In this document: positions 4,133 through 50,430 of the stretch, in pieces
Layout of the letters: the number at the start of each line of letters is the position of its first letter
Position numbering within the stretch: the stretch's first letter is position 1
Assembly: GCA_964417855.1 (NCBI GenBank)
Contig: CAYQJB010000001.1
Span: forward strand, 38,709-102,708
Source of the DNA: an uncultured Candidatus Saccharibacteria bacterium
GTDB taxonomy: Bacteria; Patescibacteriota; Minisyncoccia; Phycocordibacterales; CAIZLB01
Length of the DNA: 64,000 nucleotides
Reading direction: 5' to 3'
Notes under the pieces: generated by a model
The model's input: only the letters and a program-made list of their open reading frames with translations
Database searches by the model: none
What the model was told of the DNA's origin: nothing
Position numbers and translations under genes: made by a program

Positions 4133-4579
4133 CTATTTAGCTTTTACGATTTTTGTTGTAACAGCAGCCCCTTTTTTAACGACCTTCTTTACAGACTTTG
4201 CTCCTACTCCCAATTCCTTTGAAATTGTCTTCCAATGAGACTTTAATTCTGTTGCTAATTTTTCAAGCTCTGGAGCCTCAATCTTCTTGATTTTAGTGTA
4301 CTTTGATAATACAGAGTCCACATTAGTTTTGTACTTGTCCTCTGTAACATCCTTCATGTCTTCTAGTCTATCAAGTACCTCACCCTTTGCTTTTAATATC
4401 CAACCTTTAGCGTTTTTAATTTTTTTCTTTGCATCTTTTGAATTGTGAACAAAATATGCTCCAACTGCAGCTGCTGCAGTAAGACCACCAATAACTCCTA
4501 GAACACCCGCAACATTACTGCCTTTAGCGTCAGTGCTTTTTTTAGCACCTGCTTTGTTTCCTGTTTTTGTTGTATTCAT
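4133..4579 (-). CDS. hypothetical Lys-rich protein with one TM helix
   Basis: ORF with hydrophobic segment GVLGVIGGLTAAAAVGAYFV. No recognisable catalytic motif. Confidence 0.4.
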   Translation of the reverse strand: MNTTKTGNKAGAKKSTDAKGSNVAGVLGVIGGLTAAAAVGAYFVHNSKDAKKKIKNAKGWILKAKGEVLDRLEDMKDVTEDKYKTNVDSVLSKYTKIKKIEAPELEKLATELKSHWKTISKELGVGAKSVKKVVKKGAAVTTKIVKAK

Positions 4580-4685
4580 AACTCATATATTATATCAAGA
4601 GTAAAAAATTATGCAAAATAGATATACCCTAATATTAGGCAATTCAGTCCAAGGTTTAAATTGTGAGTAACTACGCCCCGAATAC

Positions 4686-38293: not shown

Positions 38294-38910
38294 TTAGTTT
38301 CCAGCACAATATGACCGGTCCCAGACATAAGGATCCGTTGGACCCACCAATTCCTTATTTAAATAAGAAATACCCACGTCTATAGGATTGTTTTGTTTAT
38401 CAAGTACATACAAATTAAAATAATATTCGTTAAAGGATCTTTTACCCCCACAATCATAACCCCAACTACTATCCCAAGATAAAGGAGAAAGGTAGCTAAC
38501 ATTAACTGTGCCATAATTTGGGATAGTTTTTAGAATAGATATTAAATCTCCATTATACATTTTTTTTAACTGTAGATCAGCCGTAATATAAGTTGTAAAA
38601 CCTCCGTCACTCCATACTGTATCACCAGGATCAAAATTAACATCACATTCACCATACTGACACAACGAAGAGGATGGGTAGTGACCGTAAGCTGTTCTGT
38701 ACACTTCCAAAGACTTCATGAACTCCTCAAGAGAACTTTTAACCTTGGACATTTGCGCTTTTTGCCTAGCTATATTAACAGAAGCCAACACAATAGATGA
38801 AAGCAAGGCAATAATCGATATAACCACCAAAAGCTCAATTAAAGTGAATCCTGCTTTTTTACTATTACCACCCCCCCCCTTGCTAGTTTTTTGTTTTTGA
38901 AAATATTCAT
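38294..38910 (-). CDS. type IV pilin-like protein whose leader (ATG at 38908-38910) is out of frame with the mature domain because of a G9 tract
   Basis: A G10 tract would give MNIFKNKKLARGGGGNSKKAGFTLIELLVVISIIALLSS... The in-frame portion 38294-38830 lacks an ATG. Confidence 0.55.
38871..38879 (-). repeat. homopolymeric G9 (C9 on plus) tract inside the pilin leader-coding region
   Basis: Read directly. It is the only tract of this kind noticed in an AT-rich window. Confidence 0.9.
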
Positions 38911-47510: not shown

Positions 47511-47810
47511 TCACCAGCCAAACGGGTTAGCGTATGGATTGTAGTATGGTTCCACGTAGTGTCCACGGTAGTAGCCACGGCGGCCATAGCCACCGTACGG
47601 AACAGTCGGACGGTTCATGGAATTGTTGAGGACAGCACCCCCTACCGCAGCAGCAGCAACACCCAATGCGGCCATTCCGACAGCATTGCCCATCTTGGCA
47701 TTAGCTTCAGTTTGGCGAGCGCGCTGTTCGGGAGTACCACTTGGCATGGCGCAGTTTGTGAAAACAAGCGACACCATCGTAACGACAACAGTCAACAGTT
47801 TAGTTTTCAT
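47511..47810 (-). CDS. lipoprotein with Gly-zipper and Gly/Tyr/Arg-rich tail; GC-rich gene
   Basis: Signal peptide plus lipobox FTNC. Approx 50% GC. Promoter TTGACA-N17-TAGCAT duplicated upstream of the next gene. Confidence 0.5.
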   Translation of the reverse strand: MKTKLLTVVVTMVSLVFTNCAMPSGTPEQRARQTEANAKMGNAVGMAALGVAAAAVGGAVLNNSMNRPTVPYGGYGRRGYYRGHYVEPYYNPYANPFGW

Positions 47811-47904
47811 TTGTTCTGATTCTGGTTTTGGTTTTCTGACATCAGGAAAGGAGTATTCCTCCGGTCCTCACTAATGCTATTCCTATCATATTTTTTGTCA
47901 ATGA

Positions 47905-48318
47905 TCATCTATTGTTATGACCGTGTCCACCTTGGTGTTGATTGCCCCCAAAGTTTTGGTGCTGACCATATCCACCTCCTCTTCCTGGCGTGTTGTATAC
48001 ACCACGGTTGTAACTACCGTTGTAACCACTATATCCATGATTACCGCCAACACTGTGACCGTAACCACTTGTATATCCACGATCTCCATAACTTGATCCG
48101 TAGTTATGGTTATCGTAACGATTATAGTATCCACCTCCGCGATAATAATTACGATATGGTTCGTACCCATAATACTGGGGACTTTCCACAATCACCTCCT
48201 CGACATACCCAGGTGTGTATGCTTGACTGCTATAATCAATCATCGGCACACAACTCGTCAAAAGAAATGCTGGTGGAGCAAGGACAAGTAATGCTGTAAG
48301 AAACAATTTTGCATTCAT
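47905..48318 (-). CDS. lipoprotein with Gly/Tyr/Asn/Arg-rich low-complexity domain; GC-rich gene
   Basis: Signal peptide plus lipobox LTSC. Same promoter architecture as 47511-47810. Confidence 0.5.
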   Translation of the reverse strand: MNAKLFLTALLVLAPPAFLLTSCVPMIDYSSQAYTPGYVEEVIVESPQYYGYEPYRNYYRGGGYYNRYDNHNYGSSYGDRGYTSGYGHSVGGNHGYSGYNGSYNRGVYNTPGRGGGYGQHQNFGGNQHQGGHGHNNR

Positions 48319-48488
48319 ATTCTTTGTGATTCTAGGGTTCTGTATTTTAGTTCAGGGTTCTGATGCAAGGAATCGATAACATCTTCACATCTGTCTTAAT
48401 GCTATTCTTCTCGTGATTTTTGTCAATGCAGAAAAATAATCACAAAAAAAAGAGCCCTATTGCTAGGACTCTTTTTATTGTTTCTTTG

Positions 48489-48560
48489 CGCGGCTGATGG
48501 GTGCTGACCCCACGGCCTCTCCCGTGACAGGGGAGTGCTCTACCGTTGAGCTACAGCCGC
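48489..48560 (-). tRNA. tRNA-Asp (anticodon GUC), CCA not encoded, unusual T-loop GTCAGCA
   Basis: Cloverleaf: GCGGCTG/CAGCCGC acceptor, GCTC-AACGGTA-GAGC D-arm, CTCCC-CTGTCAC-GGGAG anticodon arm. Confidence 0.6.
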
Positions 48561-49159
48561 ATTTTCATGAATCCTTCGAAAATAAGCTTTTTTCTGTCCA
48601 GATAAAGCTTACTCGTCGTATTATACATGATTTTATAAATTTTCAAAGAGTCTCGGGTACTATACTGTAATCTACTATAATTTCCACTTCTAAGGTTAAA
48701 TAAACTTCCACCGTCCAAACCTAAAGAATTAAGCATATTAAATAGATTATTTAAGAACATTTTACTAGCAGAAGTAAAGGCTACAAACATCACGGATGTT
48801 GGTTTTTTTCTTGTTTTATTAGTATGCCCTACCCAGATATTTCCATCCCCATCAAAATACCCTCTAATAAAATCTCCTTCATATTTTTTTGGAATGGTAG
48901 GAATATCCATTCTTAATGACTTATTTGGGGTAAGTCCAAGGAGTACAAGGTCATTAAACATTTCTTTGCTTCCAATTTGGACCCTATATACAGACCCCGT
49001 TTCTGATTTTATTTCAGATATTTTATGTGGTAATTTCATTACTTCAGCAATAGAAATAAGAAGTTCCCTGTCAGCCGTATAGAAAGAGATAAAATGAGTA
49101 TTTCTTTTAGTTTTAATTATGTTACCATCTGCAAATAAAAAACCTAAAATATAAGCCAT
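48551..49159 (-). CDS. double-motif LAGLIDADG homing endonuclease; stop lies inside tRNA-Asp 5' end
   Basis: LGFLFADGNI and IRGYFDGDGNIW dodecapeptide motifs. Confidence 0.75.
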   Translation of the reverse strand: MAYILGFLFADGNIIKTKRNTHFISFYTADRELLISIAEVMKLPHKISEIKSETGSVYRVQIGSKEMFNDLVLLGLTPNKSLRMDIPTIPKKYEGDFIRGYFDGDGNIWVGHTNKTRKKPTSVMFVAFTSASKMFLNNLFNMLNSLGLDGGSLFNLRSGNYSRLQYSTRDSLKIYKIMYNTTSKLYLDRKKLIFEGFMKMRL

Positions 49160-49267
49160 GTTAGGCGACCATTTTTTGAAAAAGTTGTTGTTGTTAATTT
49201 TAAATACTGGAGTGGTATTATTATATATTCGAAAAAATTAATGACAATTGCGAACATTAAAAAAGTG

Positions 49268-49341
49268 TGTCGACGGGAGGGATCGAACCTCCGACCTTGG
49301 GCTTATGAGTCCCACGCTCTAACCAACTGAGCTACGTCGAC
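49268..49341 (-). tRNA. tRNA-Met (or tRNA-Ile lysidine), anticodon CAU, elongator-type
   Basis: Cloverleaf: perfect acceptor GTCGACG/CGTCGAC, canonical D-arm and T-arm (GGAGG-TTCGATC-CCTCC), loop CTCATAA. Confidence 0.8.
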
Positions 49342-49423
49342 GTACAGACACTATAATACAAAAACACCTAATTTTCAAGCTTTATAGAAGGCTCTATTTT
49401 ATGCATTTTTTACGATTAATATC

Positions 49424-49460
49424 TACCCAGCAAAAAAGCCCCTATTAGGAGCTTTTTTTT
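49424..49460. terminator. bidirectional hairpin AAAAAAGCCCCTATTAGGAGCTTTTTTTTTT between the two CAU tRNAs
   Basis: Read directly. Confidence 0.6.
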
Positions 49461-49468
49461 TTAAATTG

Positions 49469-49539
49469 TTGCGGAGTCCGGAATTGCACCGGATCTACAA
49501 GGTTATGAGCCTCGCGTGCGACTGTAACACTCCCCCGCA
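49469..49539 (-). tRNA. atypical tRNA-like gene with CAU anticodon: 7-bp acceptor, 4-bp D-stem with 7-nt D-loop lacking GG, T-loop TGCAATT
   Basis: Hand-folded TGCGGGG..(GTGT-TTACAGTC-GCAC)..CGAGG-CTCATAA-CCTTG..TCCGG-TGCAATT-CCGGA..CTCCGCA-A. Confidence 0.4.
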
Positions 49540-49647
49540 ATTTGTATCTATATCAAATATGAATACCTTCGTACTATATAACATATTGTAATAAAAGACA
49601 ATCCTTTTCAGGTTTTAGTCTAAAATACCAAATAGCAATAAGTCAGC

Positions 49648-50430
49648 CTAGATAAAATAGAATTCAGCAAAAACCTTTCTGTATAAATCTATTGTGTTTT
49701 GAGCTTGCTCATGTGACAACTCATATGAAGACCCTTCATGAGCAATGGTGTTTCTAACTTTATGAGCCCTCCATGCCAAATCAAGTGTATTAAAGTCTGA
49801 GGACTCAATTGCTTTTAATTTGTCTGCGATAGTGTCTCCATCGTAACCCATTTGATCAAGCATTTCATATAGCAAAATATCAGCTTCAAGAATTGCCATT
49901 CTCCAATCTGAAGAATTTGTAGATGCTATGTGACCTAAAATATCTTCCCATTTTTTATTTTCTCCAGATGGATTAAGTACAGGCTTACCGGCAGACAAGT
50001 CTGTACCACCTTCAGACACACCTTCTCCAACACCCCCCTGCGATACACCACTCTGTGAACCCGCAGTACTTGAAATACTTGCGATATAACCTTTTGGTAA
50101 ACTAGTTTTATACAAAGTAACAATTTCCTTTTGCTTATTTTTTAAATAAAAGGACGCAAGAAGGAAAAATAGAATTAAAAAAACAGAGAAAAATATCACC
50201 ATATTAAATAGTGAATTGAATGAGTCCAGAGCCTGATTTATAAAACCAGTTGAGTCTGTAGTCAACTTTCCTTGTCCGTACCCCAAATTCTCTAAAACTC
50301 TTTTCCCGGTTGCAAGATAAATAAGAACAATAAAAGCGACAACTGAAAATATCTTAATTTCCAATGCGAACATATGGTCTGAAGCCCCAGCACTTGCTGG
50401 TTTTTTTGCATCTGGTTTTTTATCTGCCAT
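49648..50430 (-). CDS. membrane protein with C-terminal DUF4145 (HEPN-superfamily, R-x4-H) domain
   Basis: Two TM helices. C-terminal LDLAWRAHKVRNTIAHEG...DLYRKVFAEF fits the DUF4145/HEPN RN..AH pattern. Confidence 0.5.
   Translation of the reverse strand: MADKKPDAKKPASAGASDHMFALEIKIFSVVAFIVLIYLATGKRVLENLGYGQGKLTTDSTGFINQALDSFNSLFNMVIFFSVFLILFFLLASFYLKNKQKEIVTLYKTSLPKGYIASISSTAGSQSGVSQGGVGEGVSEGGTDLSAGKPVLNPSGENKKWEDILGHIASTNSSDWRMAILEADILLYEMLDQMGYDGDTIADKLKAIESSDFNTLDLAWRAHKVRNTIAHEGSSYELSHEQAQNTIDLYRKVFAEFYFI

Follow-up and report, generated by a model that had tools for sequence, protein, structure and literature searches.

Results

A LAGLIDADG Gene Overlaps tRNA-Asp in a tRNA Cluster

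The DNA analyzed here (the window; 64,000 nucleotides (nt), positions 38,709 to 102,708 of contig CAYQJB010000001.1, assembly GCA_964417855.1) is derived from an uncultured Candidatus Saccharibacteria bacterium of the Patescibacteria and contains a tRNA cluster in which a LAGLIDADG open reading frame (ORF) is located between a tRNA-Met and a tRNA-Asp gene. An exact match of the protein assigns the window to a Patescibacteria metagenome-assembled genome (GCA_037127815.1). All features of this locus lie on the minus strand and are listed in Table 1. A sequence-only reading of the window had described a two-motif LAGLIDADG gene at this position, with an end overlapping the 5′ end of tRNA-Asp by 10 nt. 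The gene and its two neighbors were borne out by the ORF list, Pfam, ARAGORN and Rfam, and the overlap was exact (48551-48560, stop codon included). The TAG stop of the ORF is formed by U8-A9-G10 of tRNA-Asp, and its final codons CGG CTG TAG correspond to tRNA positions 2-10. The promoter-like sequence upstream of the ORF was the best of the region, and no terminator was found in the window sequence between the ORF and tRNA-Asp. Promoter, LAGLIDADG gene, tRNA-Asp overlapping the last codons of this gene, and terminator form one unit.

The absence of an evident intron, with contiguous flanking tRNAs, had also been noted from the sequence only, and both flanking tRNAs were found complete by ARAGORN and Rfam. 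A Rfam scan of positions 47800-50200, covering the spacers around the ORF, revealed no group I or group II intron at E ≤ 10, and none was detected across the whole window at gathering thresholds; neither scan yielded an intron enclosing the ORF. The ORF is not an intein either: an in-frame stop codon is located upstream (49238-49240, 26 codons before the ATG), the TAG lies in the tRNA, and there is no extein. The alignment of PI-PkoII to the ORF was confined to the region of the endonuclease domain.

Table 1. Features of the tRNA-Met/tRNA-Asp locus (window positions)
Feature	Position	Strand	Remarks
Atypical tRNA-Met(CAU/CAT)	49468/9-49539	minus	ARAGORN; Rfam tRNA 40.7 bits; first gene of the tRNA cluster
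Hairpin/T-run 3′ of the atypical tRNA-Met	~49431-49465	minus	
Promoter-like TTGAAA-17-TATAGT of tRNA-Met (49267-49341)	49378-49350	minus	
tRNA-Met(CAU/CAT), upstream neighbor of the cassette	49267/8-49341	minus	ARAGORN; Rfam tRNA 69.8 bits
Promoter-like TTGTCA-16-TATAAT of the LAGLIDADG gene-tRNA-Asp unit	49247-49220	minus	11/12 matches
18 in-frame codons TPVFKINNNNFFKKWSPN, homologous to the family N-terminus	49160-49213	minus	First codon ACT at 49211-49213
LAGLIDADG ORF, 202 amino acids from the internal ATG	48551-49159	minus	Stop TAG 48551-48553
LAGLIDADG motif 1 LGFLFADGN	49121-49147	minus	
LAGLIDADG motif 2 RGYFDGDGN	48839-48865	minus	
tRNA-Asp(GUC/GTC), intron-less, T-loop GUCAGCA	48488/9-48560	minus	ARAGORN; Rfam tRNA 59.3 bits
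Intrinsic-terminator-like hairpin and T-run closing the unit	48476-48447	minus	

The Protein Is Predicted to Be a Monomeric Homing Endonuclease

The ORF matched the Pfam family LAGLIDADG_3 (PF14528) in two stretches with E = 1.2e-13 and had approximately 1,970 homologues in the database. The best 120 of these were 54-100% identical over the full length and mostly 220 amino acids (aa) long. The Pfam match and the number of homologues place the ORF far beyond chance. The archaeal intron enzyme I-Tsp061I was the nearest solved relative in a sequence search of the Protein Data Bank (PDB), and the sequence identity to solved LAGLIDADG enzymes was approximately 20%. The AlphaFold2 (AF2) model (predicted local distance difference test, pLDDT, 85.9; predicted template modeling score, pTM, 0.84) contained the alpha-beta-beta-alpha-beta-beta-alpha order of elements twice. 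All top 50 Foldseek matches in the PDB were LAGLIDADG enzymes or maturases, with I-Tsp061I in first place (E = 3e-11). The top matches included the monomeric LAGLIDADG enzymes I-Tsp061I, I-AniI and I-DmoI, and similarity to the bI3 maturase was found as well. The catalytic aspartate pair was invariant in 66 of 66 uninterrupted copies of the family. Pairwise ratios of non-synonymous to synonymous substitutions (dN/dS), window copy included, ranged from 0.07 to 0.15; the least saturated pair (dS 0.21) gave 0.088, and comparison of the window gene with its relatives gave 0.08-0.13. These ratios indicate that the family is under strong purifying selection. From sequence and model, the ORF is predicted to be a monomeric, two-domain, free-standing LAGLIDADG homing endonuclease gene (HEG).

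The HEG Family Has a Fixed Address

A species-level scan with one genome per species yielded 37 loci (related loci are designated by L numbers throughout), among them loci of Paceibacteria, Nomurabacteria, Taylorbacteria and Wolfebacteria. Each of the 37 has the HEG or a remnant of it directly beside tRNA-Asp(GUC), usually with tRNA-Met upstream, and this address is kept even where protein identity falls to 43%. ARAGORN missed tRNA-Asp in 15 of the loci; 14 of them consist of a 5′ half (...CCTGT), an insert and a 3′ half (CACG...), and in the fifteenth (L015) the contig stops within the 5′ half of the tRNA. In none of more than 70 related loci was the HEG located inside an intron. These comparisons indicate a large family in Patescibacteria with one fixed address, the tRNA-Met/tRNA-Asp(GUC) spacer. 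Searching IMG/VR for phage carriage revealed only distant relatives (27-40% identity), none of them next to a tRNA, and for this reason there is no evidence for a phage vector.

The Insertion Site Is Polymorphic and the Cassette Moves as a Block

Metagenome contigs were scanned with a pattern limited to the 5′ exon of window-type tRNA-Asp, which is neutral with respect to HEG and intron. The scan returned 119 loci, of which 105 remained after dereplication at 97% identity and 93 were classifiable: 33 with a full HEG, 14 with a remnant and 46 empty. The empty site consists of tRNA-Met, a spacer of 22-140 nt and tRNA-Asp. Remnants typically comprise the final 30-65 HEG codons beside the tRNA and were called with the family profile, for which the reverse-strand control reached a maximum of 2.2 bits. 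Short C-terminal relics were missed by tblastn alone, and the profile search added four; matches at 3-6 bits (L047, L065, L083, L087, L110) were kept as “none.” In-frame stop codons mark the copies in L018, L030 and L040 as pseudogenes. Such a coexistence of intact, decayed and empty sites is what the cycle of invasion, decay and loss of homing endonuclease genes would be expected to produce.

Pairs of loci showed that identity is concentrated in the cassette. In two Nomurabacteria species (L036/L038), a block of 880 nt is 99.1% identical within flanks of 79-88%; it starts approximately 100 nt upstream of the HEG (promoter), includes HEG and tRNA-Asp and stops where the terminator ends. In L007/L008, from the HEG clade of the window, the HEG-tRNA-Asp block is 93-99% identical, the upstream sequence 46-87%, and the downstream sequence cannot be aligned. 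From the 3′ exon on, L046 and L060 match at 96% identity; they carry different cassettes and differ by the precise presence or absence of a 209-nt intron. L050 and L159 are 89-93% identical downstream and just 71-73% in HEG and upstream region. These identity profiles indicate that the cassette block was recently exchanged between diverged genomes. Together with the constant position next to tRNA-Asp and the filled, decayed and empty sites, they support the first of two options raised by the sequence-only reading, a free-standing homing element at a tRNA-gene site.

The HEG Is Associated With a Group I Intron in the Adjacent tRNA-Asp

The inserts in the tRNA-Asp genes of related loci matched the Rfam family Intron_gpI with 33-54 bits and are located at position 35/36 (CCUGU, the insert ending in G, then CAC). 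These introns are 195-344 nt in length, none being longer than 344 nt, and all are ORF-less. Group I introns at 35/36 which self-splice in vitro have been described in tRNA-Asp and tRNA-Asn of Patescibacteria (Nakagawa et al., 2026, PMC13011429). HEGs were looked for inside the introns only in that work, and the lack of a HEG in most tRNA introns was taken to mean limited horizontal transfer; an adjacent, free-standing LAGLIDADG gene upstream is not mentioned in its text. Among the classifiable metagenome loci, the intron was present in 22 of 33 with a full HEG, in 10 of 14 with a remnant and in 5 of 46 with no HEG. The odds ratio for full against no HEG was 16 (Fisher p = 5e-7, 97% dereplicated), and full and remnant copies together against none gave p = 1e-8. 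In the species-level set, an intron-bearing tRNA-Asp lies beside the HEG in 14 of 34 full-length loci, some of which have in-frame stops.

The second option of the sequence-only reading, that a neighboring tRNA once carried an intron, agrees with the introns in tRNA-Asp of the relatives; the HEG, though, lies outside the intron in every case and is for this reason not a stranded intron ORF. That the ORF is the leftover of an intron-encoded endonuclease, stranded when a flanking tRNA lost its intron RNA, appears very improbable. LAGLIDADG genes are usually borne by introns or inteins, and the relatives have an intron next door, but the HEG is found upstream of a whole tRNA in every related locus and never within the 195-344-nt intron, and the window contains complete flanking tRNAs and no intron core.

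The association with the intron also bears on the idea of a domesticated, vertically inherited and non-mobile host factor, which might be an intron maturase, a regulator of the tRNA operon or a helper in tRNA processing. Such a role would fit the position conserved across deep divergence, the strong purifying selection, the intron association itself and the fold similarity to I-AniI and the bI3 maturase. The dedicated maturase bI3 has lost its catalytic residues; in the HEG family these are invariant. Moreover, half of the loci which share this tRNA-Asp lack the gene, pseudogenes and remnants are common, blocks of 99% identity are embedded in flanks of 79-88%, and many intact copies have no intron to serve. 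The tRNA-Asp intron, in turn, self-splices in vitro without protein (PMC13011429). A host factor is thus considered distinctly unlikely.

A Putative tRNA-Asp Relic Precedes the HEG and Has a GIY-YIG Counterpart

In most family members a bipartite motif, GGTTAG-N8-11-CCTGTCAC(G), is located just upstream of the HEG and corresponds to the D-loop and the anticodon loop of tRNA-Asp in tRNA-like spacing. The part CTGTCA[CT] occurred at a constant offset (-23; -5/-7 in the wider clade of the window) in 44 of 62 unique upstream regions, compared to 1.2% of random windows, and the full motif GGTTAG-N8-11-CTGTCA[CT] was present in 28 of the 62. Similarity to the tRNA stops at positions ~38-43 and retains the joined sequence CCTGT-CACG; in some loci (L034, L037) it reaches back to positions 6-10. 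We read this motif as a putative degenerate copy of the 5′ two-thirds of tRNA-Asp with an uninterrupted intron-insertion site. The sequence GGTTAG-N9-CCTGTCACG-TATAAT could also be an operator for the enzyme.

Two loci first scored as empty proved to contain a small GIY-YIG gene in the same spacer (L046, ~4190-4600, and L127, ~510-880; 79 and 92 aa, Pfam E = 4e-11 and 2e-13, respectively). These genes end in or at the 5′ end of tRNA-Asp and are preceded by a near-intact pseudo tRNA-Asp, covering positions 1 to ~22-30 and split by a GC-rich hairpin, which is much fresher than the relic of the LAGLIDADG cassette. Since two unrelated nuclease families share this layout, the elements appear to insert into the tRNA-Asp gene and to carry or regenerate its 5′ part. 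Other small ORFs in long empty spacers (L044, L071) gave no Pfam match.

Proposed Mechanism of Homing to tRNA-Asp

The observations are best explained, in our judgment with good though not overwhelming probability, by a free-standing LAGLIDADG HEG cassette which homes to tRNA-Asp. Beyond mobility and association, the mechanism that we infer from the sequences would proceed as follows. Where a genome lacks the cassette, the enzyme would cleave its tRNA-Asp gene within or close to the anticodon arm, and recombinational repair would then copy a donor segment bounded downstream by the real tRNA-Asp and, in most family members, upstream by the degenerate 5′ part of tRNA-Asp (D-loop to anticodon loop). 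With the relic upstream and the real gene downstream, the tRNA gene could supply both homology arms, the left one from the pseudo-copy and the right one from the real tRNA; possibly the pseudo-copy would also act as operator. A tRNA-Asp intron in the donor, ~35 nt away from the HEG, would be part of the copied segment and would thus be mobilized in trans. By interrupting the presumed target, the intron would protect the donor, which is the logic of collaborative (trans) homing of phages.

A true homing endonuclease might instead have its target elsewhere, in the tRNA-Met/tRNA-Asp spacer, in tRNA-Met or in another part of tRNA-Asp. Because it lies ~35 nt from the HEG, the intron would then hitch-hike by co-conversion and confer no protection, and CTGTCAC would belong to a promoter or operator instead of being a target relic. 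Intact HEGs coexisting with intron-less tRNA-Asp of identical sequence, recently transferred cassettes without an intron, and the location of the motif within the promoter spacer or beside the -10 box are all in line with this reading. The order of pseudo 5′ tRNA-Asp, HEG and whole tRNA-Asp in the unrelated GIY-YIG elements, on the other hand, points to insertion into tRNA-Asp itself, the relic ends at positions ~38-43, within a LAGLIDADG-sized footprint of 35/36, and an odds ratio of 16 is high for hitch-hiking alone. A target elsewhere therefore appears rather unlikely, although clearly less so than a host factor.

Several points weigh against homing to the anticodon arm of tRNA-Asp with intron-based protection. 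The target site is deduced solely from the architecture of the cassette. Since the alignment of individual relics to the resident tRNA-Asp was weak (median z 1.8; 6 of 55 beat all 300 shuffles), the claim of a relic is based on the family-wide, position-specific motif. The Fisher test of HEG and intron treats the loci as independent of phylogeny; in a neighbor-joining tree of the HEGs, one large clade was mostly intron-plus and the clade of the window mostly intron-minus, with scattered exceptions. In five loci, the intron is present without any HEG trace. Conversely, one third of the loci with a full HEG, the window among them, are intron-less with a tRNA-Asp identical to the spliced exons of intron-bearing loci, and the clearest block transfers (L036/L038, L007/L008) are intron-less, so that the intron is not needed for mobility. 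Finally, the window copy has ACT in place of the ATG or GTG start codon of its relatives, and the upstream CTGTCA motif is missing from the window and from its closest relatives L007 and L008.

Immunity by target variation was considered and rejected: the three main variants of the anticodon stem occur alike in loci with HEG and no intron, with both, and with neither, and no resistant allele could be defined. As the single exception, the CTCCC/GGGAG stem had no full-HEG intron-less case in the metagenome set, yet exactly this combination is present in the window. Three explanations are left: a target outside the anticodon arm, tight limits on expression, or clade-specific differences in specificity.

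A more far-reaching version of homing to tRNA-Asp is offered only tentatively, as it seems to us somewhat more likely wrong than right. It would be a self-contained homing cassette of Patescibacteria, centered on an essential tRNA gene and equipped with a LAGLIDADG or, at this site, a GIY-YIG gene; the cassette would use its target gene as both homology arms and move between very divergent genomes, the 35/36 intron being an immunity device spread in trans, with the motif as operator and RNase P as additional layers. If true, the mimic of the anticodon loop in the promoter would be an autoregulatory operator. RNase P cuts at position +1 of tRNAs; cleavage at +1 of tRNA-Asp would thus remove the stop codon U8-A9-G10 from the HEG co-transcript and leave, if this version is true, a non-stop HEG mRNA. 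In relatives with G9 in tRNA-Asp (L021, L022, L027, L031), the ORF ends ahead of the tRNA.

The Window Copy May Be Declining

The family has 18 additional N-terminal residues (consensus MPIxKxxNKxFFKKWSxD), for which the window has in-frame codons. The start codon of most family members is located 6 nt past the -10 box (TATAAT), and the HEG mRNA would on this basis presumably be leaderless. The codon at this position is ATG in L163 and L164 and GTT in L166. The annotation of 202 aa from the internal methionine is common in the family: L163 (P0002, 1684-2346) has an ATG 18 codons upstream, and L166 (1947-2609) has GTT at the canonical start place. With ATG in L163, GTT in L166 and ACT in the window, the database lengths of 202 and 220 aa mix choices of annotation with real loss of the start.

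The 660-nt frame of the window is uninterrupted, all family-invariant residues and the catalytic aspartate pair are retained, and in the 17 codons before the internal ATG the proportion of non-synonymous differences (pN) is well below that of synonymous differences (pS). The internal ATG could yield a 202-aa protein with both motifs. The window tRNA-Asp has the same sequence as the joined exons in relatives with an intron, for example L023 and L028. No close pair of filled and empty sites was found for the window; its nearest relatives (77-82% protein identity) all carry the HEG. On these sequence features the copy would be either recently disabled or N-terminally shortened, with non-standard translation, and it may be declining.

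Compatible with the explanation at family level is the possibility that the window copy is no longer a working homing endonuclease and has been kept since expression of the overlapping tRNA-Asp, probably an essential gene, depends on the promoter and 3′ end of the HEG. The ACT in place of ATG/GTG, 6 nt after the -10 box, is consistent with this, as are the GTT of L166 at the same place, the missing CTGTCA motif, the intron-less tRNA-Asp, the lack of a terminator between HEG and tRNA-Asp and the tRNA-proximal codons which remnant loci always retain. An open frame of 660 nt with its catalytic and invariant residues, dN/dS of 0.08-0.13 against relatives, pN well below pS even in the 17 upstream codons, and the internal ATG from which a protein including both motifs could be made argue against a disabled copy. 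We hold a disabled copy to be a real but doubtful possibility.

Further Observations on the tRNA Cluster and Related Loci

The T-loop GTCAGCA of tRNA-Asp, which had been remarked on as odd from the sequence only, was confirmed in the Rfam alignment. This T-loop (GUCAGCA, with G54 and G58 instead of U54 and A58) is kept in more than 100 related loci (L044-L162), where changes in the T-stem are compensatory (GUGGG/CCCAU, GAGGG/CCCUU, GCGGG/CCCGU). Given this conservation and the compensatory changes, the odd loop is not a sign of decay; from the alignments, the tRNA looks like a functional, lineage-specific architecture and not a pseudogene. Rare T-loop variants are AUCAACA and AUCAUCA, and the T-loop type is accompanied by a short D-loop, AACGGUA. 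Inspection of the species-level set revealed no pattern between D-loop or T-loop type and the state of the intron.

The atypical tRNA-Met (49468-49539) has a D-loop without GG, a T-loop UGCAAUU and a U1-A72 pair, and is preceded by its own promoter-like site. It was missing from the whole-window Rfam scan at gathering thresholds despite its score in the local scan. At the expected place of its counterpart in several related loci, strong Rfam matches to group I introns (63-81 bits) were found (L030, 2073-2287; L034, 1770-1984; L040, 2518-2734; L043, 2455-2684). Because of these matches, the cluster may contain another tRNA prone to introns, which might correspond to the 33/34 site of tRNA-Met listed in PMC13011429. 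Past the terminator of tRNA-Asp, two small minus-strand ORFs (47511-47810 and 47905-48318; 99 and 137 aa) with signal-peptide-like N-termini and repetitive Gly/Tyr/Asn-rich tails are unrelated to the cassette.

The HEG of L032 (1132-1240) terminates in a degenerate version of the initial ~25 nt of tRNA-Asp, and the real, intron-bearing tRNA-Asp follows 71 nt further, which suggests an out-of-register junction from a past insertion. Five loci contain an extra copy of the last ~20 nt of tRNA-Asp (CAGCACCCATCAGCCGCGC) 170-210 nt downstream of the gene (oriented coordinates: L023, ~4090; L046, 4835; L060, 999; L066, 1167; L130, 2058). It is preceded by a conserved stretch, GGGTAGYGAAATTT...GACGGCGAG..., and may mark the place where another small element inserted at the 3′ end of the tRNA.

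Discussion

The HEG-tRNA-Asp cassette combines traits of several known systems, and no description of this arrangement was found in the literature searched. In collaborative homing, a free-standing endonuclease mobilizes an intron in trans, as with F-CphI and the ORF-less psbA intron of cyanophage S-PM2 or with T4 MobE and the nrdB intron, whose I-TevIII is defunct (PMC3984707; PMC2790892; PMC6083498). As in both examples, a free-standing HEG is located, in two thirds of the related full-HEG loci, beside a gene with an ORF-less (or defunct-ORF) group I intron and is inherited together with it, and the intron would be expected to split the target of the enzyme, a target deduced here from sequence. 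Unlike the phage systems, the cassette resides in cellular chromosomes of Patescibacteria and encodes a LAGLIDADG enzyme, not an HNH or Endo VII-like one. Its host gene is a tRNA which the HEG overlaps, a pseudo-copy of the target gene lies upstream, and one third of the HEG-bearing loci, the window included, have no intron.

Intronless homing is known from the free-standing Seg and Mob HEGs of T-even phages (PMC2988022, PMC3984707). The cassette shares with them a free-standing HEG between conserved genes, localized co-conversion of flanks and patchy presence. SegB even lies inside the tRNA gene cluster of T4. The Seg and Mob enzymes, however, belong to the GIY-YIG or HNH families and spread between phages at co-infection, whereas the gene described here is of the LAGLIDADG type, is located on a bacterial chromosome and has kept a fixed address across a phylum-level radiation.

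The introns of the related loci resemble those of PMC13011429 in site, length (195-344 nt) and lack of ORFs, whereas the tRNA-Asp of the window has none. Concerning the enzyme, LAGLIDADG fold, two motifs and catalytic aspartates are shared with I-Tsp061I, I-DmoI, I-AniI and PI-PkoII. In the same phylum, LAGLIDADG genes have been reported in rRNA insertions of CPR (candidate phyla radiation) bacteria (PMC11270868). Unlike LAGLIDADG genes of introns, inteins or rRNA insertions, the HEG is not enclosed by any of these and has a predicted promoter of its own.

Integrative elements that use tRNA genes as insertion sites bring along a substitute for the tRNA end which they displace. Like these, the cassette is flanked by a partial duplicate of the tRNA, and the tRNA remains functional after insertion; unlike in these, the duplicate is the 5′ portion and not the 3′ end, and there is no integrase. 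Since no integrase is present, the duplication would stem from, or serve, the repair of double-strand breaks.

These findings have several practical consequences. Annotations routinely start the HEG 18 codons too late and often overlook the neighboring tRNA-Asp where it contains an intron. The family offers hundreds of natural LAGLIDADG variants, presumably with the same or nearly the same ~20-bp tRNA target, which is of interest for meganuclease engineering. Furthermore, the cassette may be useful as a marker of recombination among uncultured ultra-small bacteria.

The cassette appears to be a variant of phage-type intronless and collaborative homing in bacterial chromosomes and bears on the spread of tRNA introns in Patescibacteria. 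PMC13011429 is the only systematic study of these introns; our data point to a mobility gene just outside the intron, ~35 nt away, which is full in 22 of the intron-bearing loci, a remnant in 10 and lacking in 5. If the enzyme cuts intron-less tRNA-Asp, this would be the first case of collaborative homing in cells rather than phages and the first with a LAGLIDADG enzyme. Such cleavage would also open the long-standing model that mobile introns arise by convergence of a free-standing endonuclease and an ORF-less intron on one site to direct testing. The self-contained cassette, if true, would account for the abundance of “HEG-less” tRNA introns in Patescibacteria.

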